Shown in pieces: positions 11,176 through 35,033 of a stretch of 64,000 nucleotides of DNA. A program made the position numbers and the translations under genes. Below the pieces are notes generated by a model. The model was given only the letters and a program-made list of their open reading frames with translations, searched no databases and was not told the origin of the DNA. The stretch is from Longimicrobiales bacterium (lineage in GTDB: Bacteria; Gemmatimonadota; Gemmatimonadetes; Longimicrobiales; Gaopeijiaceae). The stretch's first letter is position 1, and the number at the start of each line of letters is the position of its first letter. The DNA lies in contig CBDCNQ010000004.1 of the NCBI GenBank assembly GCA_965219445.1, forward strand, positions 1 through 64,000, written 5' to 3'.

Positions 11176-12417
11176 TCATCCTGTGACCCTCGCTTCGATG
11201 CGGTCGATCGCGCCGCGGAAGGTGTCGGGTACGAGGTGCGCGTAGACCTGCTCGACGACCTGCGTGGTGTCACCGAGCAGGCGTGCTACGACGGTGAGGC
11301 TCACGCCGTCCTGCGCGAGCCACGATGCGAAGGTATGGCGTCCTGAGTGCAGCGTGAGGCCATCGCCCTGGGCGCCATACTTGATGCCCGCCCGCCGGAA
11401 CGCTTCTCGCACCCAGGTCGTGATGGTCACGGCGCCTATCGGCTCGTCGCGGCCCGCGGTCCGGATCAGGTATCGTTCTCCTGCGTAGCCTCTTTGGATG
11501 TGGTTATCGATGATTGCGGCAAGGCTCGGCGCGAGCGGTACGTCGCGCTCGCCGCGGCTCGTCTTCGGTCTCCAGGGCCAACGTCCCGCCCTGGACTGCA
11601 CGCGCAGAAGCGGGTAGTCGCCGTCGAGTGCCACGTCGGTCTCGGGCCTGAGATGGATGATCTCGCCCCTTCTGAGCCCGGCGAGGAACGCGAGGGCGAC
11701 GATGGCGCGCACGGGCGAGCCGGTCGTGGCCCGGTCGAGCTGCCGCCACTCCTCGGGCGTGAGGAACGAAAAGCGTGTGCGCCGCACCTCGGGCGTCTCG
11801 ACCTTCTTCCAGGGGTTCGAACGGACCAGTAGCTGCACGCCCTGCCGTTCAAACGCTTCGGCCTCCTCGGCCATGACCATGCTCCAGAGCGCGCCGCACA
11901 CGATCCGGCAGCCCTGCTGCGTGGCGGGCGCCCATGCGCCCCGGCCGTCGCGCTTGGCATGCAGGTACTCGCGCGCGTCGGAGACGGTGAGCTCTTCCAT
12001 GGGGAAGTCCACGCCGAGCTCGCCCGTGAGCGCTTCGAGATAGCCCCGGTACTTGTCACAGGTGCGCCGGCTTCGGGTAGCCTCCTTCATCCTCATGAAC
12101 CTCTGCATGGCGGGCCCGAGCCGTGGCGAGTCGGAGCCCATGCGCCTGAGCTTGGTGGCGTCGCCGTCCCTGAGCGCGGCCTGCGCGTCGGTGATGTGCA
12201 TGTCGCCCCTGCGGATCGCTTCGAGCACGCCCCAGTCGCCTCGGTCCATGAGCTGCACCAGCACCGCGTGCCGCTCGTATGCGACATCGGGATCGTCCGT
12301 CCTGAGCGCGACGGCCAGGCGTCCGCCACGGAAGCGCGGATGCCGGCGGTCGAAGTAAGCGCGCCCAGCGCGCCACATGAGACCCTTCGGGGCCCGCTTA
12401 CGCCGTCTGGGGCTCAC
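11176..12417 (-). CDS. int: Tyrosine integrase
   Basis: GLRRGE, HSGRH and YAH catalytic motifs; adjacent to attL. Confidence 0.93.
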   Translation of the reverse strand: MSPRRRKRAPKGLMWRAGRAYFDRRHPRFRGGRLAVALRTDDPDVAYERHAVLVQLMDRGDWGVLEAIRRGDMHITDAQAALRDGDATKLRRMGSDSPRLGPAMQRFMRMKEATRSRRTCDKYRGYLEALTGELGVDFPMEELTVSDAREYLHAKRDGRGAWAPATQQGCRIVCGALWSMVMAEEAEAFERQGVQLLVRSNPWKKVETPEVRRTRFSFLTPEEWRQLDRATTGSPVRAIVALAFLAGLRRGEIIHLRPETDVALDGDYPLLRVQSRAGRWPWRPKTSRGERDVPLAPSLAAIIDNHIQRGYAGERYLIRTAGRDEPIGAVTITTWVREAFRRAGIKYGAQGDGLTLHSGRHTFASWLAQDGVSLTVVARLLGDTTQVVEQVYAHLVPDTFRGAIDRIEARVTG

Positions 12418-12673
12418 CGTGCCGCTCTTCTTTCAGTTTCTGGAGGTACCGTTCTTCGGACTCGCGCATGAACCGCCCGAGCTCCTCGGACGAGATCCGG
12501 TAGTTGACTTTCGTCGACCGCGAGATGTTCACGACGCCCGAGGGTCCGAGGTGTCCGCCCTTGATCAGGAGCCGGACCTGCTCTCGGGACACACCGAGCC
12601 GTCCGGCGACCTGTCTGGTACTGAGCCAGTTGTACTCGGCCTCGTACTGCTCCGGGGTTTTCGTTCTGCTCAC
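12398..12673 (-). CDS. Excisionase-like HTH protein
   Basis: WLSTRQVAGRLGVSREQVRLLIKGGHL...YRISSEEL; overlaps the int start. Confidence 0.8.
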   Translation of the reverse strand: MSRTKTPEQYEAEYNWLSTRQVAGRLGVSREQVRLLIKGGHLGPSGVVNISRSTKVNYRISSEELGRFMRESEERYLQKLKEERHGEPQTA

Positions 12674-12674
12674 G

Positions 12675-13508
12675 TCACCACGCCTCTGCGGCTTCAGTAG
12701 CCCAGGGAGTCGGGCACACGACCCGCTCCTCCGCGCCCCGCTCCACCATCCGCCGGAACAGAAGGACCGCGCTGTCTTGCAGTGCGCGTTTCGTGGGCTC
12801 CAGCGGGGCCCCGGCAGAGGCCCCGGCAGCGGCCCAGGCAGCGGCCCAGGCAGCATCCCAGGCAGCGGCCCAGGCAGCATCCCAGGCAGCGGCCCAGGCA
12901 GCATCCCAGGCAGCGGCCCTGGCAGCATCCCAGGCAGCGGCCCTGGCAGCGGCCCTGGCAGCGTCCCTGGCAGCGGCCCCGGCGGCGTCCCTGGCAGCGG
13001 CCCCGGCGGCGGCCCCGGCAGCGGCCCTGGCAGCGGCCCAGGCAGCGGCCGCCGACTTGCGGGCGGCATCCAACATCTCCTGCGCACCCCTGAGCGTAGC
13101 TGCGTCCGCGATCTCGGGGAGCGACTGCAAGCCGTCGGCCTCCGTGTCCAGCCGAGCCAGCCGAAGCCATGCGGGCGTATAGGTACGGACGATCCAATCC
13201 ATCGCCATGAAGCCGCGAGCGTCGGCGTGGCCATCGCTCGCCGTGCCGACGAGCGCCGGAATGAGTGGCTTCAGCCGTTGCCGCCGCTCGACGTCCAGAC
13301 AGTCGTTGAGGCCGCGCCCGAACGCACCGAGCACCGGGCAGACGCAATTCGGTTTATCGCTGTGCGGCTCGCGCGCCAGCCATGCGACGGCCTCCATGAG
13401 GCACACGCCTTCGTCCGGGCTCTGGTGCGATCCATTTTCCAGCCTCAAGCGCCCGAACTCCTCCGCACTCCGCCAGAACCACGGTTCGTTACGTGTCTCT
13501 CTCATCAT
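12675..13508 (-). CDS. Phage hypothetical protein with AAAW/DAAW repeats
   Basis: AAGGAG RBS; CLMEAVAW...CVCPVL N-terminal domain; Ala-rich tetrapeptide repeats. Confidence 0.75.
   Translation of the reverse strand: MMRETRNEPWFWRSAEEFGRLRLENGSHQSPDEGVCLMEAVAWLAREPHSDKPNCVCPVLGAFGRGLNDCLDVERRQRLKPLIPALVGTASDGHADARGFMAMDWIVRTYTPAWLRLARLDTEADGLQSLPEIADAATLRGAQEMLDAARKSAAAAWAAARAAAGAAAGAAARDAAGAAARDAARAAARAAAWDAARAAAWDAAWAAAWDAAWAAAWDAAWAAAWAAAGASAGAPLEPTKRALQDSAVLLFRRMVERGAEERVVCPTPWATEAAEAW
12813..13050. repeat. 12-bp tandem repeat (~19-20 units, GGCAGCGGCCCA variants)
   Basis: Seen directly; encodes the Ala-rich tetrapeptides on the minus strand. Confidence 0.9.
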
Positions 13509-13924: not shown

Positions 13925-14275
13925 TCATTGGCCTGTCCTCACGACCCAGACGGCGCACCGACGTCCGGTATGAAGTGAGGTTCTACGGCGCCCGGAGTCG
14001 CGGATCATTCCGAGCTTCACGAGCTCGTTACGTCGAGCGCATACGCTCTGGCGCAGCATCGGCAGGCCGCCTTCGATCTCCGCGTCGGTGGCCCCAGCGT
14101 CGCCCCGTGCCAGGATGTAGCCATAGACCTCGGCCCGCTTGGTCGGCGCGCCCCGAGCTACGCTCCGTGCCGCCTCGCGCGACGTGTCGGAGCCCTTCTG
14201 GTGCGGGGGCAGCCCTCCGTAGGGCTGCTGCTCATCGAGGAAAAGCGGCAGGCCCGTCAGTTCAGCCGGCCTCAC
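13925..14275 (-). CDS. Phage winged-HTH protein
   Basis: GATDAEIE...QSVCARRNELVKLGMIRDSG pattern. Confidence 0.7.
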   Translation of the reverse strand: MRPAELTGLPLFLDEQQPYGGLPPHQKGSDTSREAARSVARGAPTKRAEVYGYILARGDAGATDAEIEGGLPMLRQSVCARRNELVKLGMIRDSGRRRTSLHTGRRCAVWVVRTGQ

Positions 14276-15405
14276 ACCGGCCTCGGGATGGAGTGTTCCA
14301 CCCGCAGAGGTGATACCACAAAGACCACCGAGTCACCGTCTACGGGTTCGATGCGTATCGGCCTAGTGGCTTCGCTCAATTTTTCGCTCAATCTCAGGAT
14401 CATGCGTCCACTGACACTGCGCGCGATCTGGCGCAGATACGCAGCGTTGACAACGAACGTGATGTCTCCCTGAACGTCGGCGGCGAGCGCCTCCTCGTAT
14501 CCGCCCCGGTCTGTGGAGTCCGAGCGGAAGAGCGCTCTGCCGTCGTAGAGATCGACCTGAAGCCGGAAGAAATCCCCGCGCATGACGGAAACAGCCAGCT
14601 CACAGACCCTGGCAACGGATGTCGCTTCCAGTTCGGCGCTGACCGCGCAATCGGCGGCGTCAGGGATCACACGATCGAGGTCGGGATACTTCCCTTCCTT
14701 TTGCGATACCCGAAGCGTCTCGTGCCCAGCGGCGAACTCGGCCCAGCGGCGGTCCCAGCGAAAGCGCACGTCCTCTTCGGTGCGCTTGGCCATGGCCGCC
14801 AGGAGCCGCACGTCCTGGCGCGTGATCAACACAGACAGGCCAACGGGCACCTCGATCCGTGAGTCGTACCGGCCGAGCACATGGCCGCTCGTGGCTTCGA
14901 CTGTGAGGTGCCCTTCGCGCTCCCGAAAATGCACACAGGCGAGGTGCGGGCGGGCGATGTCCTCGGTGGAGGCGGCCCAGGCCGTCGCGGCCAGGGCGTC
15001 TCGCATGACGGACGCCGGCACCTCCACCTCTCCCGCCGACTCGATGTCCCCGAACAGAGGCCAGTCGCTAACCGATAGCGTGGGCAGGGTCACCAAAGCG
15101 GAACCGCCGCGCGCCGTGCGTGGCCCTTCACCGTTTCCAGACAACTCGATCATCTCGCCGGATGCGTGCTCGGCGAGCGCCAACAGGCCGTCCGCCCGGA
15201 TCAACGTCCGGCCTTCCTCGCACACGTCGCACTCGACGCGCACAGAGCTCCAACGCTGCAGGTCCGTGGCCTGGAGCTCCAACCCGTCCTCGCGGGCCTG
15301 GGCGTGGATCATGTCCAGCACCGGCAAGATGCTGCGGGACGCCTGAACCTTGGAGACGGTGGCCAGTGCAGCGCGTAGCGCCTTGGCTTCGACGGTTGCT
15401 TTCAC
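14272..15405 (-). CDS. Phage-encoded DNA polymerase III beta-clamp homologue
   Basis: 377 aa; ILPVL..LQATDL, ATSGHVL and EGKYPD motifs and C-terminal VVSPLR resemble DnaN. Confidence 0.85.
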   Translation of the reverse strand: MKATVEAKALRAALATVSKVQASRSILPVLDMIHAQAREDGLELQATDLQRWSSVRVECDVCEEGRTLIRADGLLALAEHASGEMIELSGNGEGPRTARGGSALVTLPTLSVSDWPLFGDIESAGEVEVPASVMRDALAATAWAASTEDIARPHLACVHFREREGHLTVEATSGHVLGRYDSRIEVPVGLSVLITRQDVRLLAAMAKRTEEDVRFRWDRRWAEFAAGHETLRVSQKEGKYPDLDRVIPDAADCAVSAELEATSVARVCELAVSVMRGDFFRLQVDLYDGRALFRSDSTDRGGYEEALAADVQGDITFVVNAAYLRQIARSVSGRMILRLSEKLSEATRPIRIEPVDGDSVVFVVSPLRVEHSIPRPV

Positions 15406-15692: not shown

Positions 15693-16217
15693 TCAGAATG
15701 GCAAGGCATCGTCGGCAGTCGGAGAGGCGTCGGCGGAAGATGCTGCGGGAGCCGCAGACACCGCGGCCGCCGCGCGCAATAAGGACCCGAACCGGGTTTG
15801 CAGGTTGCCGACCTTTTCCTCGCTGGCTCCCTGCAGCTGCGGCTCATGGTCTTCCGGGTTCATCCAGGACGCCTTGAACCGGGTTTGCCCGTTGTACTCC
15901 TCGGGCTTGACGGATATTTGAACGATTCTGGTCGGCGGCGGACCCAGAACGCTCTGAAGGTCCCCGTTCCAGCCCAGCGACCGGGCCAGCTGATCGACAG
16001 CGCTGGTGTTGATCTGGCCGCCCTTTTTGACCACCCACCAGTTTCCAAAGCAGCGGTGCTCGTCATAGTCGGACCAGTTCGTCCATTCGTCGGCGCCGTT
16101 CCATTGGGCCCCGACCTGGAACTCACACGAGACGGCCACCGCTCCGCTGTCCGCGTCCCACACCTTCCAGCTCAACAAGTGCGCCTTGAACAGGCCCTCA
16201 CGGTCCAGGTTTCTCAT
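15693..16217 (-). CDS. Phage single-stranded DNA-binding protein (DUF669-like)
   Basis: Acidic C-terminal DDALPF tail; follows a Sak4-like ATPase. Confidence 0.7.
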   Translation of the reverse strand: MRNLDREGLFKAHLLSWKVWDADSGAVAVSCEFQVGAQWNGADEWTNWSDYDEHRCFGNWWVVKKGGQINTSAVDQLARSLGWNGDLQSVLGPPPTRIVQISVKPEEYNGQTRFKASWMNPEDHEPQLQGASEEKVGNLQTRFGSLLRAAAAVSAAPAASSADASPTADDALPF

Positions 16218-16700
16218 GCCTCACCTCCGAAGATCCGCCGCCAGATCGTGTCGTCGGTTGCGTGGCTAAACTGCGCCGGACCGGCGATCCGCCGCGATTT
16301 GGCGATATGGCTGGGCTGCTCGGCGGGCCAGATCGTGCGCGTCCCGCCACCGATGCCCTTGCCGTCTTCCGACACCACGTCATAGCCGAGAAACAGCACA
16401 TGGTCGGCCCACTGAACGACCCGGTTGCGGATCGACGCCTTGCCCGAGCGCGGCCGCTGTAGATGCGGCTCGTAGCGAATCCAGTCGTCTCCGGTCGGAT
16501 TCGGTACGCTCTCGATGCAGTCATGCGCGATCAGGACCACGTTGCGGCCCGCCCGCACTTGCCGGTCCAGGTCCGCGAGCAACAGCAGAAACGTGTCGTA
16601 GACGTGCTGGTAGCCTTTGCCGAATCCGTAGCCCTCGATGCTGGAGACCGTCGCCCCTTTCTCGTGCTTCACGGTTTCGAGCGTGTGGGCGATCGCAAGC
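16214..16700 (-). pseudogene. Sak4/AAA_24-like ATPase, 5'-truncated
   Basis: SIEGYGFGKGY, VVLIAH, WADHVLF and HIAKSR motifs. The Walker A half is missing and the frame stops at ~16702. Confidence 0.75.
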
Positions 16701-16770
16701 TAGTACTTTTTCGTGCAACGTTTCACCAGCCGCTATCCCCTCGAAGCGGTGAACAGGGAGAGGGTGCCCA

Positions 16771-17172
16771 ATGACCGCAGCAATCTCTAGCGCATCCTTA
16801 GCCGTCTACACCTTTCTTTTGCCTATAGCCCAAGTGAGTCTGGTAGTCGCGGTGCTGATCCTTGTCCCGATGGCATTTTTTCAGGGCACCAAGAAACCAG
16901 CGGGCGTGGGTCTTCTTTGGGCATCCTACCTCTTGGGAGCAACCACCTGGACCCTCGGCGCGGCAATCACTTTTAGCATCTATAGTTGGTTGGGTCTGGC
17001 GGTGGGGATGTTGTTTTTCGGGGTGGGAGTTGTGGCACTCGCTATCGTTGGAAGTGTCTTCGTGATTAAGTCCGCCAGCATGGCTATTTCGCTAATCGTT
17101 ATGGCCATTTTAGTGTGGGGTTTTCGTGCTTGGGGGGTTGCCCTGATGATAGCGCTCCCAGGCGGCGAATAA
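16771..17172 (+). CDS. 4-TM membrane protein (moron-like)
   Basis: RBS GGAGAGG; hydrophobic; lower GC; opposite strand to the other phage genes. Confidence 0.7.
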   Translation: MTAAISSASLAVYTFLLPIAQVSLVVAVLILVPMAFFQGTKKPAGVGLLWASYLLGATTWTLGAAITFSIYSWLGLAVGMLFFGVGVVALAIVGSVFVIKSASMAISLIVMAILVWGFRAWGVALMIALPGGE

Positions 17173-17381
17173 AGGGGGCACCGTGTCTGGGGTGTATTGG
17201 GGAGGCGTCATCATCGTTGGCGGTGCCGCTTTTCTTCGGCACCTGGATTTATGCAGCGATGACCTACGGGGTGTTTCTCGGCATCGGGCTCGGATGGATT
17301 CCGACCATCGTTGTCGGAGTGGTGGCGGGGCTGGTTTGGCCGCTTTTCGCTCTCGTTGCGGTAGCCCCCAGCGGACCATAG
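17115..17381 (+). CDS. Small membrane protein (start uncertain)
   Basis: Hydrophobic C-terminal ~55 aa. Confidence 0.45.
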   Translation: MGFSCLGGCPDDSAPRRRIKGAPCLGCIGEASSSLAVPLFFGTWIYAAMTYGVFLGIGLGWIPTIVVGVVAGLVWPLFALVAVAPSGP

Positions 17382-17450
17382 GGCGGGGCTCAAAAAAATG
17401 GCGACTATACACTTGACGACACCCATCACAGGGTGCAAAAAAATATAAGG

Positions 17451-17491
17451 AAATAAGAAAAGGGGCCGCGCCGTTTCTGACGTGACCCCTT
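17451..17491 (-). terminator. Rho-independent terminator of the antisense sRNA/tRNA unit
   Basis: GGGGTCACGTC-loop-GGCGCGGCCCC followed by TTTTCTTATTT on the minus strand. Confidence 0.75.
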
Positions 17492-17525
17492 CAGTGTGGC
17501 AGAACCACACTCTAACTTCGCAAGT
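17455..17525 (-). ncRNA. Putative anti-tRNA small RNA (~70 nt)
   Basis: Begins ACUUGCGAAGUUAGAGUGU, the perfect complement of the tRNA segment at 17623-17641; has its own promoter and terminator. Confidence 0.7.
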
Positions 17526-17531
17526 ACCTAT

Positions 17532-17560
17532 AGTATCGGCGGAAAGCTGCTCCTGGTCAA
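17532..17560 (-). promoter_or_regulatory. sigma70 promoter of the antisense sRNA
   Basis: TTGACC-17 bp-GATACT; predicted +1 at 17525, the first antisense base. Confidence 0.65.
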
Positions 17561-17576
17561 GTAAGAATGCCAGCCG

Positions 17577-17663
17577 TGGTGCCCGGGGCGGGATTCGAAC
17601 CCGCACGACCCGAAGGCCACTAACTTGCGAAGTTAGAGTGTCTACCAGTTCCACCACCCGGGC
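17577..17663 (-). tRNA. tRNA with Leu-type body and Ala anticodon CGC (predicted mistranslating tRNA)
   Basis: GCCCGGG TG GTGGAACTGGTAGACAC T CTAAC-TTCGCAA-GTTAG TGGCCTTCGGGTCGT GCGGG-TTCGAAT-CCCGC CCCGGGC A CCA. All stems pair; long variable arm, A73, no G3:U70. Confidence 0.9.
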
Positions 17664-17739
17664 ACCTAAACAAAGCGGGCGTCGTCGTCGTCGACACAAC
17701 TCGCAAGCTATTCAGTCCGCGATGATGGCTGACCTATTG

Positions 17740-17768
17740 AGGCTAGATAAACCTGGGCTTGGGGTCAA
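17740..17768 (-). promoter_or_regulatory. sigma70 promoter of the tRNA
   Basis: TTGACC-17 bp-TAGCCT, giving a ~70-nt leader. Confidence 0.6.
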
Positions 17769-17775
17769 CCGACAT

Positions 17776-18459
17776 CTAGCGCACCACCCACACCACCGCG
17801 ACACCTGTACCGAGACCTCTCATGAAGCTCCCGACGTGCCCGAAGAAGCCGCTAGGCAGCGCGTCCCGGAGGAACCCGATCTCCTCTTCGTAGAGCCGGT
17901 TCGACTCGGCGAGGATGGCTTTCTCGGCTCGCTCGGTCGCCAGATTCCGTTCCAGCAAGACGATGGCGAACGAGTCTGCTTGATGGAGGGCCGTAGCCCC
18001 GAGTAGCTGTTCCCGGAACGCTTCGCGGACGCTCTGCTCCGCTGCCTGCTCCTCCCGGTGCTGCGCCTGAGCGATCTCGACCAACGGACGGAGCTCGGGA
18101 CGTACGACGGCATAGAGGCTGTCGTGGGTCGCGTCGAGGTCGGTGCCTGCCTGAGCGGCGCGCTCGGAGGCATCGGTCTCCTGTTGCTCGGCTTGCGCGA
18201 TCATCTCACGGGCCTGGACGCGCTCGATTCGTAGAGAATCCCGCACCTGTTCGAGCTCAAGCGAATCGGCACGGGTGCGCGCACTCGCGTCACGGAGTTG
18301 CACCTGGAGCTGTGCCTGATCTTCGGCCCGGTCGTCAGCAAGCGCTTTCGCCACGGCGAGATCGGACAGCGCGCCTTGGAGCCACCAGCCGAGGACGCCG
18401 AGCGCTACGATCATGATGAGCTCGCCGGGCAGACGAACGCGGGTGAGCCAGTCGTTCAT
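17776..18459 (-). CDS. Rz/i-spanin-like coiled-coil membrane protein
   Basis: N-terminal TM and long coiled coil; end of the lysis cassette. Confidence 0.55.
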   Translation of the reverse strand: MNDWLTRVRLPGELIMIVALGVLGWWLQGALSDLAVAKALADDRAEDQAQLQVQLRDASARTRADSLELEQVRDSLRIERVQAREMIAQAEQQETDASERAAQAGTDLDATHDSLYAVVRPELRPLVEIAQAQHREEQAAEQSVREAFREQLLGATALHQADSFAIVLLERNLATERAEKAILAESNRLYEEEIGFLRDALPSGFFGHVGSFMRGLGTGVAVVWVVR

Positions 18460-18914
18460 CGCGGCGCCAACGGTATTGGCCTGATCTCGCACTCTGCGAA
18501 GCGGGGGTCGTCATGATCACCACCACCGAGCAAATCGTGGATCGCTTCGTGGCTTACCACGACAGGGTCATTCACCGTGCGCCGGTCGAGCAGGATCTCG
18601 CGGGGCAGGGGAGCGGCCCAGCCTCCGAATTTTCGGCCTAGCGTCTCTACGTCGAGCAAAAAGTCCACGACCGACCAATTAATCGCGAAGAAGTCGCCTT
18701 CCAGACCCGTACACTCCTCCATCAGCGAATAGATGTAGGCGTGCATCGTGGTCGGATAGAACTGGATCCTGTTCCAGTAGCGCACCTCGGTCCAGCCCGT
18801 TTCGGTCGACGCCGAGGGGGGCGCCACGCGCAGCACGGGGGACGGCAGAGCAGATCCCGTGCAAGCAGCGAGCATGGACAGCGCGAGTCCGACGCAGAGG
18901 ATGCGCCGGATCAT
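18456..18914 (-). CDS. Phage lipoprotein with HExxH motif
   Basis: Lipobox LAAC; HEAIH. Confidence 0.6.
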   Translation of the reverse strand: MIRRILCVGLALSMLAACTGSALPSPVLRVAPPSASTETGWTEVRYWNRIQFYPTTMHAYIYSLMEECTGLEGDFFAINWSVVDFLLDVETLGRKFGGWAAPLPREILLDRRTVNDPVVVSHEAIHDLLGGGDHDDPRFAECEIRPIPLAPR

Positions 18915-19459
18915 GCCCTCGACACCTTGGGCAACAGCTGGCGGATGTCGTCGACGGACAGGATCGGGTTGTTCGGGTCGGTGCCTTCGGGATCAGTCTT
19001 GCGGCCGCGTGGCCAAGCTTCGCTGGAGTGGCCGACGATGCGCCACGTGTCTCTGAGGTTCCAGCCGTGTTTCTCGTAGTAGATGCGGCAGAGCAGGGCC
19101 ATGGTGAGCATCTGTAGCGGGGTGACGTCGTGTTTTCCGCTGGAAGCGATCGCGATGCCGTAGAACGCCGAGTTGGCGTCGCCGTAGTGGAGCCTGGCCG
19201 GGTCTGAGGGCCTACAGCGGCCCGCATGCCACGCCCGGGCGCTGTCGGGCGCTATGCGTACGTAGGAGCCGTCGTCGAGGATTAGGAGGTTGTAGCTCAC
19301 GTGGCAGCGCGGATCGCCGAACCACTGCATCGAGCCGCGGTCGGATCCGCTCCCGTCGTAGTGGAGAAGGATGCCCTGGCGGTCCTCGCGGAGCGTTCCG
19401 TAACGCTGGTTCAGGATCTCGCCCGTGAGCGTCGGCGTCCAGACGAGCTGCCCGGTCAT
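18911..19459 (-). CDS. N-acetylmuramoyl-L-alanine amidase (endolysin)
   Basis: ILLHY, AWHAG, IVGH and KTDP Amidase_2-type motifs. Confidence 0.88.
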   Translation of the reverse strand: MTGQLVWTPTLTGEILNQRYGTLREDRQGILLHYDGSGSDRGSMQWFGDPRCHVSYNLLILDDGSYVRIAPDSARAWHAGRCRPSDPARLHYGDANSAFYGIAIASSGKHDVTPLQMLTMALLCRIYYEKHGWNLRDTWRIVGHSSEAWPRGRKTDPEGTDPNNPILSVDDIRQLLPKVSRA

Positions 19460-19758
19460 CGCTCGTCGTCCTTGAACCGGTCGTCGGTGCCGGCGTTGCG
19501 GCGTGCGGCAGCCGCGACGGCCGCTGCGACACCGCCGAGCTGTGGGCCGACATACTGGGCGATCCGCGGCCCGGCGGCCCAAGCCAGCAGCCCCGTGCAG
19601 ACCGTTCCCATGAGTGCGTACGCGGGGCCGGGCACGTTCCAGGCCAGCGAGTCCAGCACGATCAGCGCACCGGCGAAGAGCAGCGCGCCGATCAGCAGCA
19701 ACCTTGCCGAGGATCTGGAGCCGCGCTCATCGTGGAGGAACCCCGGTTCCTGGCTCAT
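19456..19758 (-). CDS. Holin-like 2-TM protein
   Basis: Two TMs; directly upstream of the endolysin. Confidence 0.6.
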   Translation of the reverse strand: MSQEPGFLHDERGSRSSARLLLIGALLFAGALIVLDSLAWNVPGPAYALMGTVCTGLLAWAAGPRIAQYVGPQLGGVAAAVAAAARRNAGTDDRFKDDER

Positions 19759-20395: not shown

Positions 20396-23300
20396 TCACC
20401 TCTCGGAGCGCCGTCGGGTGGTGTCCTGCCCAGCATTGCGCTGTCTCCGCTGCGCGTCTAAGAACAACAACTGACCGACGCGATTGGCACCGCCGGTCCC
20501 TGCCTGCTGCCCCGACGTCTCACGCCAATCCGGGGTGTAGCCGGCCAAGGGGTCCTCGTTGGGAAGGGAACCAATGCGGTCTATGCGGTTGGGTGTCTGT
20601 TTGCGCTCTTGCTCGCGGCGCGTGCGCTCGCGCTGTGTTTCCGCCCGGATCCGACCCACACGGAACGGCCCCCTGGCGGGTCGCCCCTCCTCACCGATCT
20701 CCTGGAGCGCGGCCCGGGCCAGCGCGTTCGCTTCGGTGCTCAACGTCCTACGATCATTCACCGAGGGTGTGAAGCGGCGCACGTAGGACAATGCCGTGAC
20801 GGCTTTTGATGCGTCCGCGAGCAGCAGGCGCTTCTCGCGCTGGACGGCGCTCTCTTCACGCACATTGGAGCTCTGAATCTTCTGAGCGGCTTCCAGCGCA
20901 TCGTACAGCTCGTCGATCGAGCGAGAGCGGGTCGTGCCACCGCGCACGAACAGGCGCCCGAATATGGGCGTATCGGCCAACTCGTTCTCGCGCTCGATGC
21001 CCGCCGCTCCAAGCCCGACGAGTTCTACCAAATCGGAGCCGACCGGCCCGAACATTCCCCTGATGCCGTGATCGATACGTCTGGGCGATACCTTGAATAT
21101 CTGGCCCATCGTGATCGCGGCTCGGCTCGTGAACTCGTTGAACTGTTCCTCAGCGGGAAGATTCTGTTGGCCACGCGGAACGATCGGCGTGTCGAAGAAC
21201 GTGTCTCGGTTCGCGCCTTGCTCGTAAATCTCCTCCAACCCCGGCGGCGTGAGGGGCGGCACCATCGTCTGAAGCGCGACTTTCATAAACGCGATCGCGC
21301 TCTTTCGATCGTTCAAATACCACGCATCGAGCAGCATCTCTGGGAACGCACTAAAGACGTAGCCGACCTCGAAACCTCGCGGGATCCGCACGAGCTCCTC
21401 ACGTCCATCCGGCAGTGTGACGGAGAAATGCCAGTGCAAGAACTTCTCGCGGGAGTCCATCTCCTTCCACCACTCTTCGTCCTTGTTCCGCCACCACAGG
21501 AGCAGTGTCGCGGCCGTGAGTTGGAGCCCACGTAGCGCGAATTTCTGCAGGTTTCGTTTCCCGGCACGCAGGTTCGCGCGCGGGCCCTGGATCGCGGCGT
21601 TGTGGAACGGCACCATGCGGTTCGCCGCACGGCTGAACTCGCCAGCGGCGGTGAAGTCGGTCGTCACCTGTTTGGCGGCGAGCAAGAGACGGAACGACTG
21701 ATCGACGGTCATCGGCTCGCCAGGCTGCCACCCGATTTCTGCGGACAACAGCTTGAGTTCGGCCACACGCGGCGCCGATTCAGGGGCCTGCACGAGGTCC
21801 CGATACCAGTCGAACCAATTCCTTGGATCGAGTGTGCGTGCTGTACGGCCGTGGAACAGCCGACGAGCGGCGCGACTGGCTTGTGGTAGGTCCTGGCCGA
21901 GCGGTTGCGCCATCTCGCCACCGAGCCGCACGAAGGCGTCCAGATATTCACTGCGCCGCCCGACGGTCCTGTCCAGCGCCGCATCGGTCATCGCACCGAG
22001 CCACGTAGCCAGCAGCCTTGGCCCGGCAGCCGACGTCTGTGTGTTCACCCACATCGTTTGTGCGTCGCGGATCGGATTCCACAGCAGACCGAACGATGCA
22101 CGGAGGCCGGTGGTGCCTGCCCTAAAGATTTCGGCGCTCTTGCCGAGCGTCGCCTCAAGGATTCCTAGGCCGGCGACTTGCGGCAAGCGGTAGACGTCGA
22201 GTGCCGAGAGCGCACCGAACAACTTGGCGTCTACCTGAAACCACCGGATTTTCTCGCCGTCCCGCAGCGGAACGATCGGATCGGCGCCACTCGGTCGGTC
22301 CTTGGGCACGAAGAAGGTGACCGCTTCGTTGAAAACTTCCAGCGTCTCATCATTGACGGGGCCCGGGTCTGTTTCGAGCCCGACGCCCTCGCGCGCGAGG
22401 CGCTTCTTGAGTTGGTCCAAGAGTTGACCGATCGTGCGTGTCGCACCCGGCACCATCTCGGGCGGCACCTCTTCGATCAGGCCGCCCATGCCTTCGATGC
22501 TGCTCAAGCGGATGATCTGGTCGATGACCATTCGGTGATGGGCAGCACGTAGGGTCGAGGACGCCTGCGAGATCATAACGGGGAACGGGTCTTTGATCCT
22601 GCGACCGCTGCCCTTGAGACGCTTCACCGGACTGCGAGTAGTCGCGCCTCCCTTCTGCGCTGCGCGGCCCCACAGATCGTCGATCTCATCGAACATCCGT
22701 TGCAGCGGCACGTAGTCGCCAGGATCCCGCTCGCGCACCTTCGAGACGATTTGACGGAACGAGGGCGACGCCTGAGCGGCGTAATTCAGCACCCCATCGT
22801 TCCACTCGTAAACGATTTGGGCGCCCTGCGCGAATCTGGGGTTTTCCAGTTCGGATATGATCTGTTCGGCATCGATGAGCGAGAGCCCTGGGTTGCGAGC
22901 GCCCTGTGGATCGTTCCACAACGCCCTGGCGCGCCTGGCCCATAGATAGATCGTGAAATCCTCGCGCTCTAAGGGCCGAATCATCGCCTCGATCGAGTTC
23001 AGCGGTTGACCCACCTTATTGCCAGCCAGGTCGATCATCGCGTTCTCGACCATGTAGCGTGTACGAGCGGTATGCGTCGTTCTGAGCGCCGAGAGCGTTA
23101 AGGATGGATCCTGTGACGGAGCCAGCGGACGTTCAAGCTTGCGCTGTGCCTCGGCCGAGAACTCAGCGATCGGCTGCGCCATATCGACGAGATTCTCCAT
23201 GCTGAAGAACCGCCTCACTCCTTTGCCGGCCCTCCCTATGCGCTCACGCAGACTGCCCGTGTCCGCCATGCTCGCCACCGCACGTTGCCGGCTGCCCTGA

Positions 23301-26107
23301 TCGCCGTAGCGCGTGGTAGCGTCCCGAGCCGATTCCATCGCCTTACGAACCTTCGGTTGACCGGCTAGAAACGAACCATCGAACCACTCCGCGAAGGTCG
23401 GGGCCACGCGCAAAGATTCTTCGTCCGACGTGATCCACGCCCGAACGAACTCGGCGAACCCTTCGCGCTTGTATCCACCAACGGGCTTGCTCTCGCCGTA
23501 CAGACGGAAACCGAGTTGCCTGAGCTCCCTCTGCATCTTCCCGGTAACGCCCGCTATGGAGCCTTTCCAAGGCCCACCCTTCGGCCAACCGTAGATAACT
23601 TTCTCGATCGCGTGCGCGACCTCGTGTGCTGCGGTCGGGATGTCGTTCGCCTCGCGCGTCCTGATAACCTCGGGGCGCACTTTGAAAATGCCGAGCGCAC
23701 GACGTTGTCCTATCCGACCACTACGCAGCGGTAGCGCGCGACCCGCCGCCTCGGTGATCTTGGCCATCGCGCCGATGACGGCCGGCGCCGACACGGGACC
23801 GCTCGCGGCTACGTCGACAGCCGGCGTCAGGCGTCCCTTCAGGCTCGGATAGATCGTAACCCGTTCGTCCTCGTCCACGAGCGGATCCGTCGGAGGTACG
23901 ATCCTCGCACTCGTCGGTACCGAACTCGCTGTGCCCGTGGCGGTGGGGGCAGGATAGAACTGTGTGCCGGCGGGACCGCCGAAATCGTCGGAGATGTCAC
24001 CCGACGCAGCCGGAACTTCTTCGTCGATCCCACGCGCTCGCGCCTCGCCGGCGTAAAGCGTGCGGCGCACAGCAGCAGTTGTAGAGCCCAGGTCGCTGAG
24101 TGCTTCCACCTCGGCACGAACAAGACGCTCGATAACCTCTGAGTCGGTTAGATCGGAAAGCTCAAGGAACTCGGCACGAACACCGACTGGCACGTTCCCG
24201 GCCCTGACGTATCGGTATGCGTCATCGAAATCGGGCAGCTCGATCTCACGACGACGGAGCTCGTTCTCGTACGCGACCCGACGATGCCCTGCTTGCGTCA
24301 GCCGGCCACGTGCGAACGAGCCTTTGCCGGTGCCCGCAACGCCCTTGATCCCGGCGTTATCGAACACGCGGATCCCCGGTCCCGCTTCGTTGGCCTCCGC
24401 CTCGGTCTCCGCAGACTGCCGCAGGGTCGCACGGTATCGGGCCGCAAGTTCCTCGTCGGTAAGACTCTTCGCTATCTGTGTGGCCTTCTCGAACACCGCG
24501 CCCGCGCCTGCCGGCCTTACGTCGTCGCTTGCGACCTCGCCCGCCCGCGGCCCAATCGCTTCGGCGACCGGGAGAGCGTCGTCCTGCGGGATTGATTCGA
24601 TCGGAACGCCAGAGTCGTCTAGCTTCACCTCAGGGCCAATAGTGATCTTGTCTGTGCGTTCCTGCGGGATCTGGACGTCACCTCTACGAGAGCTTGCACC
24701 GGCAGCCGAGGCACCCGCTACCGATCCGACCAGCGCACCGATGGCGCCCGCACCCTTCATGCGCTCACCGATGTCCCTCAGCGCTTCGGGATCCTTGGTC
24801 GCTACGAACTGCGTAGTGGCCTGGAATGCTTCCTGCACCGCTTCGGTGACGCCCTCAGCGATGAGCCCCGAGCCCGCACGGCGCGCGACGTTCGGGATGA
24901 GCTCCATGAATTTGCTACGGAAGAACGCCTGAGCGCCCGGCACGCGATCGAACAGGATCACGGCACCCGGGATCGCTTCCAGCACGGCGGAACCAAGGCC
25001 AACGACCGCCGCGACGCCGGCAGCCGTCCGTTCGGCCTCTTCGGCGCTCGCGCCCTGTCTGAGCGCCATCGCTTTCGTTTCCTCGAACGAGCCGCCGCCC
25101 TCAAGAACAAGGTTCGGGGCTGCGAACGCGGCGAGCCTGAGCGCTGGCGATCCCGGCACCGCGAGAGCGAGCCCAACCTGAGAGCCGAGCTGCAAGAACC
25201 CTTCGCCGCCACGGGCGAGCCACCAGCGTGGATTCGATGGGTCGAACGCGCCACCGGCTTGCACCGACAGACTCGGCGGGTTGCGTTCCTGGATCTCTTG
25301 CCCCGCGGACGATAATGAGCGCCCTGGGCGCTTGAGCGGGGGCACAACCTGCCCGATCGTTCGCAGCGTACCGCCTACACCCTCAGTGGCTTGTCCACCA
25401 AAACGCTTCGCGGTACGTGCCATCTCCGTACTGAGCGGTAGATCGGGCTTCAGTGCACCGGTTAGCTCCATGCCCGGTGGCGGAGCGTCCCCGAACTGTG
25501 GATCCCTTAGGCCCAGACGCCGATTGAACTCACGGCCTTGCTCCACGACTCTGCGCATCTGCTCGCCTAAGCGTTCGCGCTCACCTTCAGGCGCTTCGAC
25601 GGCCGGTGGAGTCCGAGCGATTGTTGCGTTTCGTAGGCTTACCGTGTTGTCGCGATCCGCCCGGATCTTTTCGCGCATGAGGTCGAGCGAGGTCGGTCCC
25701 GTGGGTTCCGGCGGCCTGGCAACCCTCGTCGCGTCAGCAGCCGAGTCGGGGGACACCCGCGTTTCCTTCAAGTCGCCCAGTGGGTCGGCGGCGGGCTGCG
25801 GACGAGTCGTAGGCAACGCCACCGCCGTGGCGTCTGCGGCGAGGTCCGGGGACACGGGACGAGGCTCCCTCCGGCCCAAGGTGGCTCGAAGCCTAGCACC
25901 AGCCCGCTGTAGTAGAGAGGGCTGCGGCTTGGCCTGCCGTTCACGCCAGTCGGGTGTATATCCCGCTAACGGGTCCCCGGCCTGTCGGCCCGATGCCTGC
26001 CGTTCACGCCAGTCGGGCGTATAGCCTGCGAGAGGATCCCCCGTCTGTTGCCCTACCTTTTCACGCCAGTCTGGGGTGTAGCCAGCAAGAGGATCGTCAG
26101 GATCCAT
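20396..26107 (-). CDS. Large polyvalent/internal virion protein (LPD38-like C-terminus)
   Basis: 1903 aa; C-terminal VRIPRGFE...ANRDTFFDTPIVP...VSPRRIDH pattern; lies before the lysis genes. Confidence 0.7.
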   Translation of the reverse strand: MDPDDPLAGYTPDWREKVGQQTGDPLAGYTPDWRERQASGRQAGDPLAGYTPDWRERQAKPQPSLLQRAGARLRATLGRREPRPVSPDLAADATAVALPTTRPQPAADPLGDLKETRVSPDSAADATRVARPPEPTGPTSLDLMREKIRADRDNTVSLRNATIARTPPAVEAPEGERERLGEQMRRVVEQGREFNRRLGLRDPQFGDAPPPGMELTGALKPDLPLSTEMARTAKRFGGQATEGVGGTLRTIGQVVPPLKRPGRSLSSAGQEIQERNPPSLSVQAGGAFDPSNPRWWLARGGEGFLQLGSQVGLALAVPGSPALRLAAFAAPNLVLEGGGSFEETKAMALRQGASAEEAERTAAGVAAVVGLGSAVLEAIPGAVILFDRVPGAQAFFRSKFMELIPNVARRAGSGLIAEGVTEAVQEAFQATTQFVATKDPEALRDIGERMKGAGAIGALVGSVAGASAAGASSRRGDVQIPQERTDKITIGPEVKLDDSGVPIESIPQDDALPVAEAIGPRAGEVASDDVRPAGAGAVFEKATQIAKSLTDEELAARYRATLRQSAETEAEANEAGPGIRVFDNAGIKGVAGTGKGSFARGRLTQAGHRRVAYENELRRREIELPDFDDAYRYVRAGNVPVGVRAEFLELSDLTDSEVIERLVRAEVEALSDLGSTTAAVRRTLYAGEARARGIDEEVPAASGDISDDFGGPAGTQFYPAPTATGTASSVPTSARIVPPTDPLVDEDERVTIYPSLKGRLTPAVDVAASGPVSAPAVIGAMAKITEAAGRALPLRSGRIGQRRALGIFKVRPEVIRTREANDIPTAAHEVAHAIEKVIYGWPKGGPWKGSIAGVTGKMQRELRQLGFRLYGESKPVGGYKREGFAEFVRAWITSDEESLRVAPTFAEWFDGSFLAGQPKVRKAMESARDATTRYGDQGSRQRAVASMADTGSLRERIGRAGKGVRRFFSMENLVDMAQPIAEFSAEAQRKLERPLAPSQDPSLTLSALRTTHTARTRYMVENAMIDLAGNKVGQPLNSIEAMIRPLEREDFTIYLWARRARALWNDPQGARNPGLSLIDAEQIISELENPRFAQGAQIVYEWNDGVLNYAAQASPSFRQIVSKVRERDPGDYVPLQRMFDEIDDLWGRAAQKGGATTRSPVKRLKGSGRRIKDPFPVMISQASSTLRAAHHRMVIDQIIRLSSIEGMGGLIEEVPPEMVPGATRTIGQLLDQLKKRLAREGVGLETDPGPVNDETLEVFNEAVTFFVPKDRPSGADPIVPLRDGEKIRWFQVDAKLFGALSALDVYRLPQVAGLGILEATLGKSAEIFRAGTTGLRASFGLLWNPIRDAQTMWVNTQTSAAGPRLLATWLGAMTDAALDRTVGRRSEYLDAFVRLGGEMAQPLGQDLPQASRAARRLFHGRTARTLDPRNWFDWYRDLVQAPESAPRVAELKLLSAEIGWQPGEPMTVDQSFRLLLAAKQVTTDFTAAGEFSRAANRMVPFHNAAIQGPRANLRAGKRNLQKFALRGLQLTAATLLLWWRNKDEEWWKEMDSREKFLHWHFSVTLPDGREELVRIPRGFEVGYVFSAFPEMLLDAWYLNDRKSAIAFMKVALQTMVPPLTPPGLEEIYEQGANRDTFFDTPIVPRGQQNLPAEEQFNEFTSRAAITMGQIFKVSPRRIDHGIRGMFGPVGSDLVELVGLGAAGIERENELADTPIFGRLFVRGGTTRSRSIDELYDALEAAQKIQSSNVREESAVQREKRLLLADASKAVTALSYVRRFTPSVNDRRTLSTEANALARAALQEIGEEGRPARGPFRVGRIRAETQRERTRREQERKQTPNRIDRIGSLPNEDPLAGYTPDWRETSGQQAGTGGANRVGQLLFLDAQRRQRNAGQDTTRRRSER

Positions 26108-29563: not shown

Positions 29564-31069
29564 TCATACGCCCTCGGCTACCCGGGTCCAGCGAGGTCCT
29601 CGCTGTTCGTCGGGCCAACCCAGGCCGTCCGAGCCGGGCTGCGGCAGGAGCTTGTGGCCCGCATCGTCCGGATGCTTCGGTGGCCCCTTCGGGCGCTCGA
29701 CGGCCGGCGTACGAGACATGAGCCAGCTGGTGATGCCGTCGTAGCCGTGATCGTCGGAGTCCGTCGCTACGTCCTCGCTGTTCTTATCGTCGAGCGGCAG
29801 AGCGGGCAGCGTGCGGATCAGATACTTACAGCTCGGGTGCACCTGCAGCTTCGGCAGCCCCCACGGGTAGACCTCGCCGTCGTCCGCTCGCTTGTACCTC
29901 AGGTAGTCGTGCAACATCTGCTTCTTGGTGTCGCGCGAGCCAGCACCCTTGGGCGGGTTGATGAAGGGCACGGGGAACTTCGAGACCGCCGCGTTCATGC
30001 CGGCCTGCAGCTTCTCCAGGATCGTCGGGCCGCCGTCGGCCACGGCCGGCGTATCGATCGCCGTCCATTCTGGCCGTGGATAGCGCATCAGCACCTGGCC
30101 CCACGTGTAGCCGACCGAGTAAGGGTCGGTCTCCTTGAACAGGTACTCGTGACGCACGAGGCTGCGCTCGGGGCCGCTCGCCATGAGGTACATGCAGCCC
30201 TGAGCCGTGTGGCCCCAGTCGCCGCCCGCGCTCCAGCGGTATTTGCCGCGGTCGGCACCGCGTTCGGGTTCGTATTCGGCTACGTGCACGTCACGGTTCC
30301 ACTCGGCGAAGGCCATGCCAACGAAGTGGTCCCAGTTGCCCTCGACCCATGCCTTGCGGAGGTTCTCGCCCAGCGTATTGAGCTCCTCCCAGTATTCCTT
30401 GGTCAGGTACGGGTTGTCCGTCGGCAGTGAGCGGATGAAGCAGAACTCATGAGCGAGCGGCGTCAGTCGTTCGTAGTCGCCCGTATAGTCTTGCTCGATC
30501 CACAGCGCCTTGACCCACAGGTGCCCGGCCGAGCCCGGATTCGTCGCGCCCCAGAAGAACGTGTCCGTGATCCTCGGCCAGCGCAGCGAGCCCCTGAGCG
30601 TGTCGAAGATCGAGATGTCGGCGCTCTTCGTCAGCTCCTCGACGGCGACGCCCGCGAACTCGGCCGACTGGTACTTCTCAGGCTTGTCGAGATTGCGGAG
30701 TAAGATGGCGCCGCCGCCGAAGCGCTCGTGCAGGTAGAAGCCAAGGCCCTCGTCCTTCGTGTCGGCGAGCCTGCCGAGCCACTCGGGGAACTCGGCTTTG
30801 ATCTTCGTCACCTGCCGGTCCTTGAGCGTCGGATAGTCCTCGCTGAACAATCCGACACGCACGCCTTTGTGGCCCGCAAGCGCCCACAGGATGAGACGAT
30901 AGAGTAGACCCCACCTCAGCAGCCGGCTCTTGCCGCCGCCGCGAGCTCCACCGTAGAGCATGTAGCGATGCTGCTTCGCCTCTTTCAGGAATTCGAGCTG
31001 GCGCGGGATCGGCTTGAACAGCGCCCAGAAGTCGAAGCCGCCGTCCTTCAAGGCCCTAGCGCTATTCAT
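29564..31069 (-). CDS. terL: Terminase large subunit
   Basis: GGARGGGKS Walker A, VEE Walker B, ATNPG, and DWG and DHGYD nuclease motifs. Confidence 0.93.
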   Translation of the reverse strand: MNSARALKDGGFDFWALFKPIPRQLEFLKEAKQHRYMLYGGARGGGKSRLLRWGLLYRLILWALAGHKGVRVGLFSEDYPTLKDRQVTKIKAEFPEWLGRLADTKDEGLGFYLHERFGGGAILLRNLDKPEKYQSAEFAGVAVEELTKSADISIFDTLRGSLRWPRITDTFFWGATNPGSAGHLWVKALWIEQDYTGDYERLTPLAHEFCFIRSLPTDNPYLTKEYWEELNTLGENLRKAWVEGNWDHFVGMAFAEWNRDVHVAEYEPERGADRGKYRWSAGGDWGHTAQGCMYLMASGPERSLVRHEYLFKETDPYSVGYTWGQVLMRYPRPEWTAIDTPAVADGGPTILEKLQAGMNAAVSKFPVPFINPPKGAGSRDTKKQMLHDYLRYKRADDGEVYPWGLPKLQVHPSCKYLIRTLPALPLDDKNSEDVATDSDDHGYDGITSWLMSRTPAVERPKGPPKHPDDAGHKLLPQPGSDGLGWPDEQRGPRWTRVAEGV

Positions 31070-32889: not shown

Positions 32890-33349
32890 TAGAGGTCTCC
32901 CAGCTCGGGCTACTGATTTCTTCTGGCTCACCGTGCCGCTCGACCAAGAAGCTTAGGTGATCGACGATCATCGAGTGGAACGGGTACTCCCGGCCTTGGT
33001 CGGTGTGCTCGTGGAAGCGCATCGAGTATCTCAAGAGCAGTCCGAGGCGCATCATTGTCTTGGCCGCGATAACCTGGTGGGCGAGCAGCCGGGTCCGGGT
33101 GATCAGGTCGTCTCCAGTCGGGGCGGGTGCCGTCTGCAGGTCCCGGATCACCGGATGATCTTTGAGATTTGCAGAGTACAGTCGTCCGGTGGTCGCACGC
33201 TCGCGCACGGCCTGGTATTGCCATCCGATGGCCGGCCACTCGAAGTCTTCGATGAACGCGAACGCCTCCTTGGCGAGCTTCCGATCGAAAAGCGCGAACC
33301 TCACGAGTTCGGTCGCGGCCTCTTCTGCGCTCTCCATCAGGTGGGCCAT
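32879..33349 (-). CDS. Phage hypothetical protein
   Basis: GAGGAG RBS; follows the helicase. Confidence 0.55.
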   Translation of the reverse strand: MAHLMESAEEAATELVRFALFDRKLAKEAFAFIEDFEWPAIGWQYQAVRERATTGRLYSANLKDHPVIRDLQTAPAPTGDDLITRTRLLAHQVIAAKTMMRLGLLLRYSMRFHEHTDQGREYPFHSMIVDHLSFLVERHGEPEEISSPSWETSNAS

Positions 33350-34257: not shown

Positions 34258-35033
34258 CGGCGGGCGTTCGCTCGCATCGCTTCCAGATGGGCGGTTTGGG
34301 ATGGGCTGTGAGGGAGCGTGTTGTTGGGGTTGGGTTGAGATGCTCTTGCACTGGCGGACCCACCGAACTCGGACGCCTTGCTCAGCCACAAGCGGAACGA
34401 CGCGTCCCAGTCGAGTTGAGTCCGGCCGTTCGCCTGGGCGTGCAATCGGAATCGTTCGGCCTCGCTCTCCACGTCGACTCCGAGCTCCGACGCCTTCGTG
34501 GCGTGCGTCTCAGACGGCCCCCAATCGTCTGGCAATCGCCTTTTTCTTTTGGCCCCCCGATAGGGGGGGTTTTCTTTAGCAGTAACAGCAGAAGCAGAAG
34601 CAGAAGAAGAAAGCGCGCGCGAGCTAGATTCTGCCACTGGCAAAACTGTGGCTGTGCCAGCTTTCTCTTTTGTTTTCGCGGATTCTGACGTGTCTCCATG
34701 TCGTGCCGCTGCGCCCTTTTTTCCGGCGTTTGACTTCTGTTTGTGATGTAAGTCTTGTTTCCGACGTTCCGCAGCAAGCCTCGGATGGATGAGCCGGGTA
34801 CCCTTTCGGTTCGGTTTGAAGCACGGTTTGATGGCCGGCCAGAGCTTCGCGAACCGTGCCTTGGAGATGCGGCACAGCTTCGCCAATTGCGCCATGTCAT
34901 TCGGAAGACCTGTGTGCAGCCACTCGTAGTCCATCAGTCTCCGGTATGCGCCTTGTGTTTCGAGTGACATCAGCTCGACGTTTTCGTCCGTCAGGAAGTC
35001 CTTCGGGTACCACTGGAACGAGGGTCGCTTCAT
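34254..35033 (-). CDS. Replication initiator (DUF1376/YdaU-like)
   Basis: PSFQWYPKDFLTD...GAYRRLM; C-terminal DWDASFRLWL. Confidence 0.8.
   Translation of the reverse strand: MKRPSFQWYPKDFLTDENVELMSLETQGAYRRLMDYEWLHTGLPNDMAQLAKLCRISKARFAKLWPAIKPCFKPNRKGTRLIHPRLAAERRKQDLHHKQKSNAGKKGAAARHGDTSESAKTKEKAGTATVLPVAESSSRALSSSASASAVTAKENPPYRGAKRKRRLPDDWGPSETHATKASELGVDVESEAERFRLHAQANGRTQLDWDASFRLWLSKASEFGGSASARASQPNPNNTLPHSPSQTAHLEAMRANARR

Follow-up and report, generated by a model that had tools for sequence, protein, structure and literature searches.

Natural tRNAs with mismatched anticodons are already known: nematodes have leucine-type tRNAs of this kind, and the allo-tRNAs and the tRNAProX family are bacterial examples. 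Allo-tRNAs, which have 8/4 or 9/3 structures, come mostly from soil bacteria and metagenomes; according to the accessible part of their description (Mukai et al., NAR 2017; PMC5389517), the synthetase goes by the tRNA body and disregards the anticodon, which reads the codon of another amino acid. The same text reports that induced allo-tRNAs charged with serine and carrying leucine anticodons led to arrest and killing of E. coli, and that allo-tRNAs were noted near toxin–antitoxin genes and mobile elements. In Streptomyces, tRNAs of the tRNAProX family decode sense codons with the wrong amino acid and are served by a dedicated synthetase paralogue, ProRSx (PMC10404621, accessible text). The words "antisense" and "complementary" do not occur in the accessible text of PMC5389517, nor does "antisense" in that of PMC7609411 and PMC11415595.

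Here we analysed a stretch of 64,000 nucleotides from a Longimicrobiales bacterium (the window), in which a prophage carries a tRNA gene, tRNA(CGC), next to a predicted antisense small RNA. Like the allo-tRNAs, it combines a body and an anticodon that do not match, and two of the related cassettes described below (L230 and L252, the latter judged by eye) have allo-like 8/4 bodies; unlike them, tRNA(CGC) has a 7/5 structure and a leucine body, whereas the allo-tRNA body is that of serine. It shares with bacterial class II tRNA-Leu the long variable arm, A73, the D-arm layout and its nearest sequence relatives, but differs in its anticodon, its antisense partner, its prophage location and its encoded CCA, which most host tRNA genes lack. 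Like tRNAProX, it would be a natural mis-decoding tRNA of a bacterium, yet no synthetase gene lies near it, and we know of no antisense RNA in the tRNAProX/ProRSx system.

Type I toxin–antitoxin systems pair an antisense RNA with a toxin mRNA, and in type VIII systems both toxin and antitoxin are RNAs. The present locus resembles them in its two small adjacent genes, in a predicted antisense RNA that has a strong promoter of its own and is aimed at the neighbour, and in its scattered occurrence on prophages and chromosomes; it differs in that the presumed toxin would be a tRNA acting by mistranslation. C4 of phages P1 and P7 and CI of satellite P4 are prophage-borne, only partly tRNA-like antisense RNAs that control downstream genes. 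They have in common with this locus a tRNA-shaped prophage RNA whose loop bases are complementary to nearby sequences on the same strand, whereas here the tRNA is complete, its predicted partner is a self-contained, terminated small RNA, and Rfam gives no C4 match. In the literature searched, which lay outside subscription journals, we found no description of a tRNA that has an antisense small RNA of its own as partner, or of a tRNA toxin acting through mistranslation.

The tRNA gene and its amino acid identity

Using ARAGORN, three tRNA genes were called in the window, among them an 87-nt gene with the anticodon CGC at gene position 35 (Table 1). The program labels it tRNA-Ala, as the first-pass annotation had foreseen for tools that go by the anticodon. 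The Rfam tRNA model is covered in full by this gene (55.5 bits, E = 1.2e-10), and a scan of 16500–19000 at E up to 1 returned just two matches beyond the tRNA, both far below their thresholds. The acceptor stem has 7 bp (GCCCGGG/CCCGGGC), with C:G and not G:U as pair 3:70, and is followed by the discriminator A73 and an encoded CCA, which the host tRNA-Cys and tRNA-Gly of the window lack. The D arm is of the leucine type, with a stem of three pairs, G13/A22, A14 and A15, and G18 and G19; its D loop is AACUGGUAG. The anticodon stem CUAAC/GUUAG carries the loop UUCGCAA, the variable region of 15 nt forms a 4-bp stem with a UUCG loop (GGCC-UUCG-GGUC) and has U48 at its end, and the T arm is canonical. 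The gene therefore has an ordinary 7/5 structure (7-bp acceptor stem, 5-bp T stem) and not an 8/4 or 9/3 one. All the structural hallmarks that the first-pass annotation had listed were found on direct reading of the sequence, as were the loop UU-CGC-AA, the C3:G70 pair in place of G3:U70, and a CCA that sets the gene apart from the host tRNAs of the window. The DNA stretch is matched with 0 differences by contigs from four public runs of one study; these runs may be the source sample, so the match is not an independent confirmation. Among the public runs, none that contains the stretch is listed as RNA.

To place the body, the anticodon was masked. The five best matches among the other 54 tRNAs of the host are its five canonical tRNA-Leu genes, and no tRNA-Ala appears among the 14 best. 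A BLAST search of the region against 60 relatives recovered the entire 281-base stretch in the host genome (G000) only. Similarity also led to 19 further loci, of which 17 hold tRNA-Leu (UAA, CAA or UAG) and one has no tRNA call; the remaining one, L086 in genome G026, has a Leu-like 85-nt tRNA with the anticodon GUC. The 19-nt D-arm string is present in at least 121 viral contig loci and lies inside 107 tRNAs of the fetched viral contigs, 103 of which have Leu anticodons; the other four have GUU (Asn), GUG (His) and the two stop-codon readers UUA and CUA. Phage tRNAs with a Leu-type D arm and these four anticodons (L114, L141, L158 and L202, IMG/VR) were searched for antisense partners, and the three of at least 80 nt have none (L141, at 77 nt, was left out). 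A search of IMG/VR for the Leu D arm together with the CGC loop returned 74 loci, none of which has a tRNA by ARAGORN, and they were rejected as chance matches. None of the three phage records searched with the tRNA has the CGC anticodon context, and the two best partial matches are annotated as tRNA-Leu.

The features of tRNA-Ala are missing, as there is neither G3:U70 nor a short class I variable loop; the class II cloverleaf, A73 and D arm of bacterial tRNA-Leu are all present, but a Leu anticodon (NAG or YAA) is not. Judged by sequence similarity rather than by isotype-specific scoring, the body is leucine-type and the gene is not a second tRNA-Ala. The mismatch between identity and anticodon claimed in the first-pass annotation is thus real, on the strength of the host tRNA ranking, the relatives, the D-arm string and the absence of G3:U70. 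In E. coli, LeuRS depends on A73 and on tertiary bases of the D arm and does not contact the anticodon, and the LeuRS of the bacteria studied does not read it. As these elements are present in tRNA(CGC), its charging with leucine is a reasonable prediction, although one drawn from LeuRS enzymes of other phyla than that of the host.

The host genome comprises 4.56 Mb in 5 contigs with about 63% G+C and 55 tRNA calls. Within it, tRNA(CGC) lies inside the prophage, on the same strand as the lysis genes and after them, and small membrane-protein ORFs face it from the opposite strand. Several further features were seen in the window. An exact direct repeat of 17 nt (12411–12427 and 32925–32941, 20.5 kb apart) may be the scar of an attachment site; one of its copies overlaps the start codon of the integrase. 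A G+C-rich tandem array (12759–13086; 19 registers with a 12-nt period) adjoins the integrase inside overlapping ORFs on both strands, and an IS110-family transposase (DEDD_Tnp_IS110 and Transposase_20; 51942–53147, minus strand) lies among host genes outside the prophage. Elsewhere in the host genome, the complete tRNA-Ser(CGA) gene at C3:34215 has a partial duplicate some 7 kb away (C3:41227–41308), identical to it over the 3′ two-thirds but not in the 5′ part, like the copy at the distal end of an integrated element. A second mismatched tRNA was found at C4:290848–290931 (minus strand). Its anticodon is UAA (Leu), whereas the five tRNA-Ser genes of the host are the nearest to its body; the discriminator is G, C1 and C72 form a mismatch, and there is no antisense partner within 400 nt.

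Table 1. Features of the tRNA locus and of the surrounding prophage (positions in the window)
Feature	Position	Strand	Basis or setting
Leu-bodied class II tRNA, anticodon CGC, CCA encoded	17577–17663	-	ARAGORN; Rfam tRNA
Anticodon CGC, reads Ala codon GCG	17627–17629	-	Sequence and ARAGORN
tRNA arm of inverted repeat	17623–17641	-	19-nt repeat pair, 100% complementary to 17507–17525
Promoter-like site for small RNA, TTGACC-17 nt-GATACT	17532–17560	-	Promoter scan
Predicted small RNA, about 76–79 nt	17447–17525	-	Promoter position, fold, terminator-like hairpin; ends predicted
Upstream imperfect second anti-anticodon segment (17698–17708), then hairpin and T-run (17679–17697)	17679–17708	-	Own comparison
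Candidate tRNA promoter, TTGACC-17 nt-TAGCCT	17740–17768	-	Pattern match; below promoter-scan threshold, weak
Integrase	11176–12417		Prophage
DnaN-like protein	14272–15405		Prophage
Sak4-like protein	16214–16672		Prophage
Amidase endolysin	18911–19582		Prophage
1903-aa LPD38 protein	20396–26107		Prophage
Terminase large subunit	29564–31069	-	Prophage
DnaB-like helicase	33337–34389		Prophage
DNA methylase	35885–36601		Prophage

The antisense segment and the decoding of GCG

The anticodon region of the tRNA and a segment downstream of the gene form a perfect 19-nt inverted repeat with 97 nt between its arms. The tRNA arm runs from the 3′ strand of the D stem through position 26 and the 5′ strand of the anticodon stem, takes in all of the anticodon loop and stops two bases past it, and the antisense segment, ACUUGCGAAGUUAGAGUGU, is the exact complement of tRNA positions 22–40. 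A promoter-like site starts 17 nt past the CCA of the tRNA (a 16-nt gap) and is the sole one in 17300–18000, where shuffled sequences have 0.3 on average; the antisense segment begins 6 nt past its −10 hexamer. The predicted small RNA is made up of the 5′ antisense segment, a first hairpin (about 17493–17513) and, at the 3′ end, a terminator-like GC-rich hairpin (about 17459–17492) with a U-rich tail. Its fold energy is −34.1 kcal/mol (z = −4.35), and none of 200 shuffles folds as well. Using ViennaRNA, the heterodimer of tRNA and small RNA is predicted to be 17.8 kcal/mol more stable than the separate folds; with the first 19 nt shuffled the dimer gain is −3.8 ± 3.0, and the real value was reached by none of 100 shuffles. 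Promoter, transcript start and terminator were all predicted from consensus patterns, in a phylum whose promoter rules are not established. As the interval from the tRNA to the antisense segment holds no terminator-like site, the antisense would be part of any tRNA transcript, in cis, and the internal promoter would supply further antisense RNA in trans.

Upstream of the tRNA lies a second, imperfect segment. Its complement has a single missing base and a single mismatch relative to the tRNA loop region and agrees with it at 11 of 12 bases; a terminator-like site was called at 17697–17679. One of the related cassettes (L248) likewise has an upstream copy of its own antisense, and any role of the copy seen here is conjectural. 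The first-pass annotation had pointed to flanking copies of CGC at 17507–17525 and 17693–17710. The former stands as one arm of the perfect repeat, and the latter is weaker, being confined to the core just described. The copies had been used only as an argument against sequencing error, and the antisense RNA gene was missed. As 17507–17525 is the start of a predicted dedicated antisense RNA gene, the locus is better read as a mistranslator that is masked or silenced than as a case of recoding.

The recoding of GCG from alanine to leucine that the first-pass annotation had proposed would be one form of genuine, tolerated decoding; the other would be regulated mistranslation for protein diversity. 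The tRNA is intact and encodes CCA, and deliberate mistranslation does occur naturally with tRNAProX and ProRSx in Streptomyces (PMC10404621, accessible text). However, GCG ranks second in frequency among the codons of the host genome (42.3 per 1000, or 4.2%, in 1115 long ORFs) and reaches 44.1 per 1000 (4.4%) in 13 prophage genes; a leucine-inserting reader of so abundant a codon would damage the proteins of both. The prophage terminase, which has 14 GCG codons, was also aligned with 37 homologues. The mean fraction of alanine at the positions of these codons is 0.37 and that of leucine 0.02, and three of the codons fall at near-invariant alanine columns, whereas CTG and CTC codons fall at leucine columns with 0.58 and 0.61. 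The host has a normal tRNA-Ala(CGC) at C3:33341–33414 and two further tRNA-Ala genes, no synthetase gene accompanies the prophage tRNA, and a dedicated antisense RNA argues for silencing. While the mismatched tRNA holds, recoding was rejected on the terminase alignment and codon usage, and tolerated decoding of either form is very improbable. A separate observation concerns terminase codon 435 (29765–29767), which is GCG (Ala) at a near-invariant column where 36 of the 37 homologues have Asp; the terminase, and hence the prophage, may be defective.

Conservation and co-variation of the cassette

The layout of a tRNA, a promoter, an antisense to the tRNA's own anticodon arm and a terminator recurs at 11 other distinct loci. 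In G026, the Leu-like tRNA with GUC is followed by the promoter core CTTGAC-N17-CGATACT, which is common to this locus and G026, and by an antisense to its own anticodon arm 7 nt later. The G026 cassette was found through tRNA similarity and not through its promoter; all others besides that of the window were found with a pattern of T loop plus promoter. The conservation of the promoter is therefore partly built in, and the set of 12 modules leans towards this one promoter, members with other promoters having been outside the search. Among the genomes of the family, the pattern occurs in 2 of 314 (G000 and G026). Genome contigs gave 15 pattern loci, of which two are real (G026 and L230, the latter with an 8/4 allo-like tRNA) and 13 are chance. 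Metagenome contigs gave 22 loci, 14 of them distinct, with a cognate antisense in nine and ordinary tRNAs plus promoter but no antisense in five. The two IMG/VR pattern loci are both chance matches inside coding-looking sequence, without a tRNA.

By body type, the 12 modules comprise three intact Leu-like members (CGC, GUC and GGC), two truncated Leu-like members (L241 and L247), two Ser-like (GAU and GAA), two allo-like, two type I and one irregular member. The longest exact complements between each tRNA and its own small RNA are 19, 14, 13, 11, 13, 8, 7, 16, 12, 12, 17 and 18 nt, as counted from the longest-complement table rather than from the MAFFT alignment, in which L248 is one column out of register. 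The own complement thus reaches 11–19 nt in 10 of the 12 modules, against 4–9 nt for non-cognate pairs save those among the close kin L222, L241 and L247, and the duplex energy is −50.0 kcal/mol for own pairs compared with −30.3 kcal/mol for cross pairs. In L243 complementarity extends up to 30 nt with one mismatch, whereas L239 has a weak anticodon stem and an exact match of only 8 nt. The antisense starts 6–9 nt past the −10 hexamer in 10 of 12 modules, and a hairpin stands directly 5′ of the T-run in 11 of 12. Ordinary tRNAs have no partner of this kind: among 177 long tRNAs of the fetched loci, only this tRNA and that of G026 have a same-strand antisense partner, and among the 55 host tRNAs only tRNA(CGC) does.

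The five Leu-like cassettes can be aligned over their full length of about 215 nt, which implies common ancestry, and changes in their anticodon arms are matched by changes in the antisense segments. Of the 26 predicted cloverleaf pairs in the three intact members, 12 have been kept through changes on both sides. The discriminator is A73 in all five Leu-like members, intact and truncated, and G73 in all four Ser- or allo-like ones; such agreement with body type is expected if charging matters. A type I member, L237, has G73 and the anticodon GUC and is possibly a cognate tRNA-Asp; mistranslation alone would leave such a member unexplained. In summary, the arrangement of a tRNA, a promoter-like site, a cognate antisense and a terminator-like hairpin is conserved and co-varying.

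These comparisons also bear on whether tRNA(CGC) is a functionless relic, an anticodon mutant of a phage tRNA-Leu that arose by decay or accident. Leu-bodied phage tRNAs with other anticodons do occur, as in the four of 107 with the D-arm string. Nevertheless, all stems and conserved loop bases of tRNA(CGC) are intact, CGC is at least two changes away from any Leu anticodon, and in homologous cassettes the anticodon is a different one and the antisense matches it in each case. A dead gene is accordingly barely credible, in line with the first-pass annotation, which had argued against a decayed pseudogene.

The surroundings of the cassettes vary. That of G026 adjoins pcm, surE, gpsA and der, and tblastx found no homology between its flanks and the window beyond the module; L252 lies between metK and ahcY, and L238 beside an integrase. 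At the remaining loci, the surrounding ORFs have no Pfam matches. In L241 and L247 the promoter and the antisense RNA gene are present, but of the tRNA only the 3′ part remains, starting at the anticodon loop or variable arm, and the 5′ half is gone. In L241 (1–424) a coding region runs up to the tRNA remnant, and in L247 (1–347) three repeats of about 22 nt, like collapsed tRNA pieces, lie upstream of the remnant.

A part of a tRNA joined to a promoter and an antisense, as in L241 and L247, and the integrase next to L238 would suit an explanation at the level of DNA, in which the inverted repeat and tRNA half form a mobile element or recombination site targeting tRNA anticodon loops, with the "antisense" serving as the target-matching arm. 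We consider this improbable. The window holds no att-type second copy of the tRNA 3′ half, the sole match at up to three mismatches being the gene itself, and the tRNA lies within the prophage and not at its end. A DNA site would need neither a promoter 6–9 nt before the repeat arm nor a terminator, and the compensatory changes preserve the cloverleaf of an RNA.

Possible roles of the cassette

We favour the reading that tRNA(CGC) and its antisense RNA make up an RNA-only, toxin/antitoxin-like cassette, and put it tentatively at a little below an even chance. The two genes are adjacent and their RNAs complementary, as in known cassettes of two RNAs. Transcription of the small RNA, toxicity of the tRNA and neutralisation by pairing are all predicted here from sequence. 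LeuRS would charge tRNA(CGC) with leucine, and the free Leu-tRNA would insert leucine at roughly 4% of all codons, with toxic effect on the cell. Once paired with the antisense, the tRNA would have its anticodon masked and its D and anticodon stems pulled apart, and RNase III may cleave the resulting 19-bp duplex. If transcription stopped because the element was lost or a phage took over, the presumably short-lived small RNA would be gone first and the longer-lived tRNA would be set free, as in addiction or abortive-infection modules.

Several points lead us to prefer this reading. The features on which charging would depend are kept, and tRNAs of a comparable kind were lethal to E. coli when induced. 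The codons that would be targeted are heavily used: the anticodons of the family include CGC, GGC and GUC, and GCG, GCC and GAC rank second, third and fourth among the codons of the host genome. The cassette is small and scattered, it occupies an accessory-gene position in the prophage, and the L241 and L247 remnants, with an antisense gene but without the tRNA 5′ half, resemble orphan antitoxins. On the other side, the small RNA would have to invade a folded tRNA, and upstream of the tRNA there is only a weak promoter candidate. Two host tRNA-Ala species read GCG and would compete, which may limit the harm, and L237, possibly cognate, and the weak L239 fit poorly.

The main rival is that the tRNA-shaped molecule is a regulatory or masked RNA outside translation, whose shape serves processing and stability and whose partner is a target, sponge or mask. 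That the complementarity reaches into the stems, with 19 nt here and up to 30 nt in L243, suits control of one RNA by another better than codon mimicry. The imperfect upstream and the downstream copies resemble the two target sites that P4 has around its CI RNA, and a cognate L237 would also be in keeping. The small RNA, however, ends in a terminator-like hairpin and faces convergent genes, here as in L252, which leaves no downstream gene to control. Neither C4 nor any other such RNA was matched by Rfam in the region scanned, and a mere scaffold would need none of the acceptor stems, body-fitting discriminators and T loops that are kept. We therefore regard a regulatory role as unlikely, although it deserves the most weight among the alternatives.

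If the toxin/antitoxin-like reading is extended from this locus to its relatives, the cassettes would be a new class of RNA-only toxin–antitoxin systems acting in addiction or abortive infection. The toxin would be a fully functional tRNA that is charged with leucine or serine as its body dictates and reads one of the much-used codons of another amino acid, and the antitoxin a small RNA against its anticodon arm; the class would be spread over soil bacteria, prophages and chromosomes, with interchangeable bodies and anticodons. This wider proposal is possible, with the balance tipped somewhat against it.

Annotation by anticodon would misfile tRNA(CGC) as a second tRNA-Ala, and the antisense partner makes the purpose of such odd tRNAs directly approachable through two small RNA genes. 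If the proposal is true, the tRNA would join the list of toxin types, and the antisense RNA would offer synthetic biology a natural, programmable off-switch for missense-suppressor tRNAs. Genome-wide mistranslation would then be a weapon of mobile elements held under RNA control, which would explain why tRNAs with mismatched anticodons, such as the allo-tRNAs and their relatives, persist despite their lethality when expressed alone.
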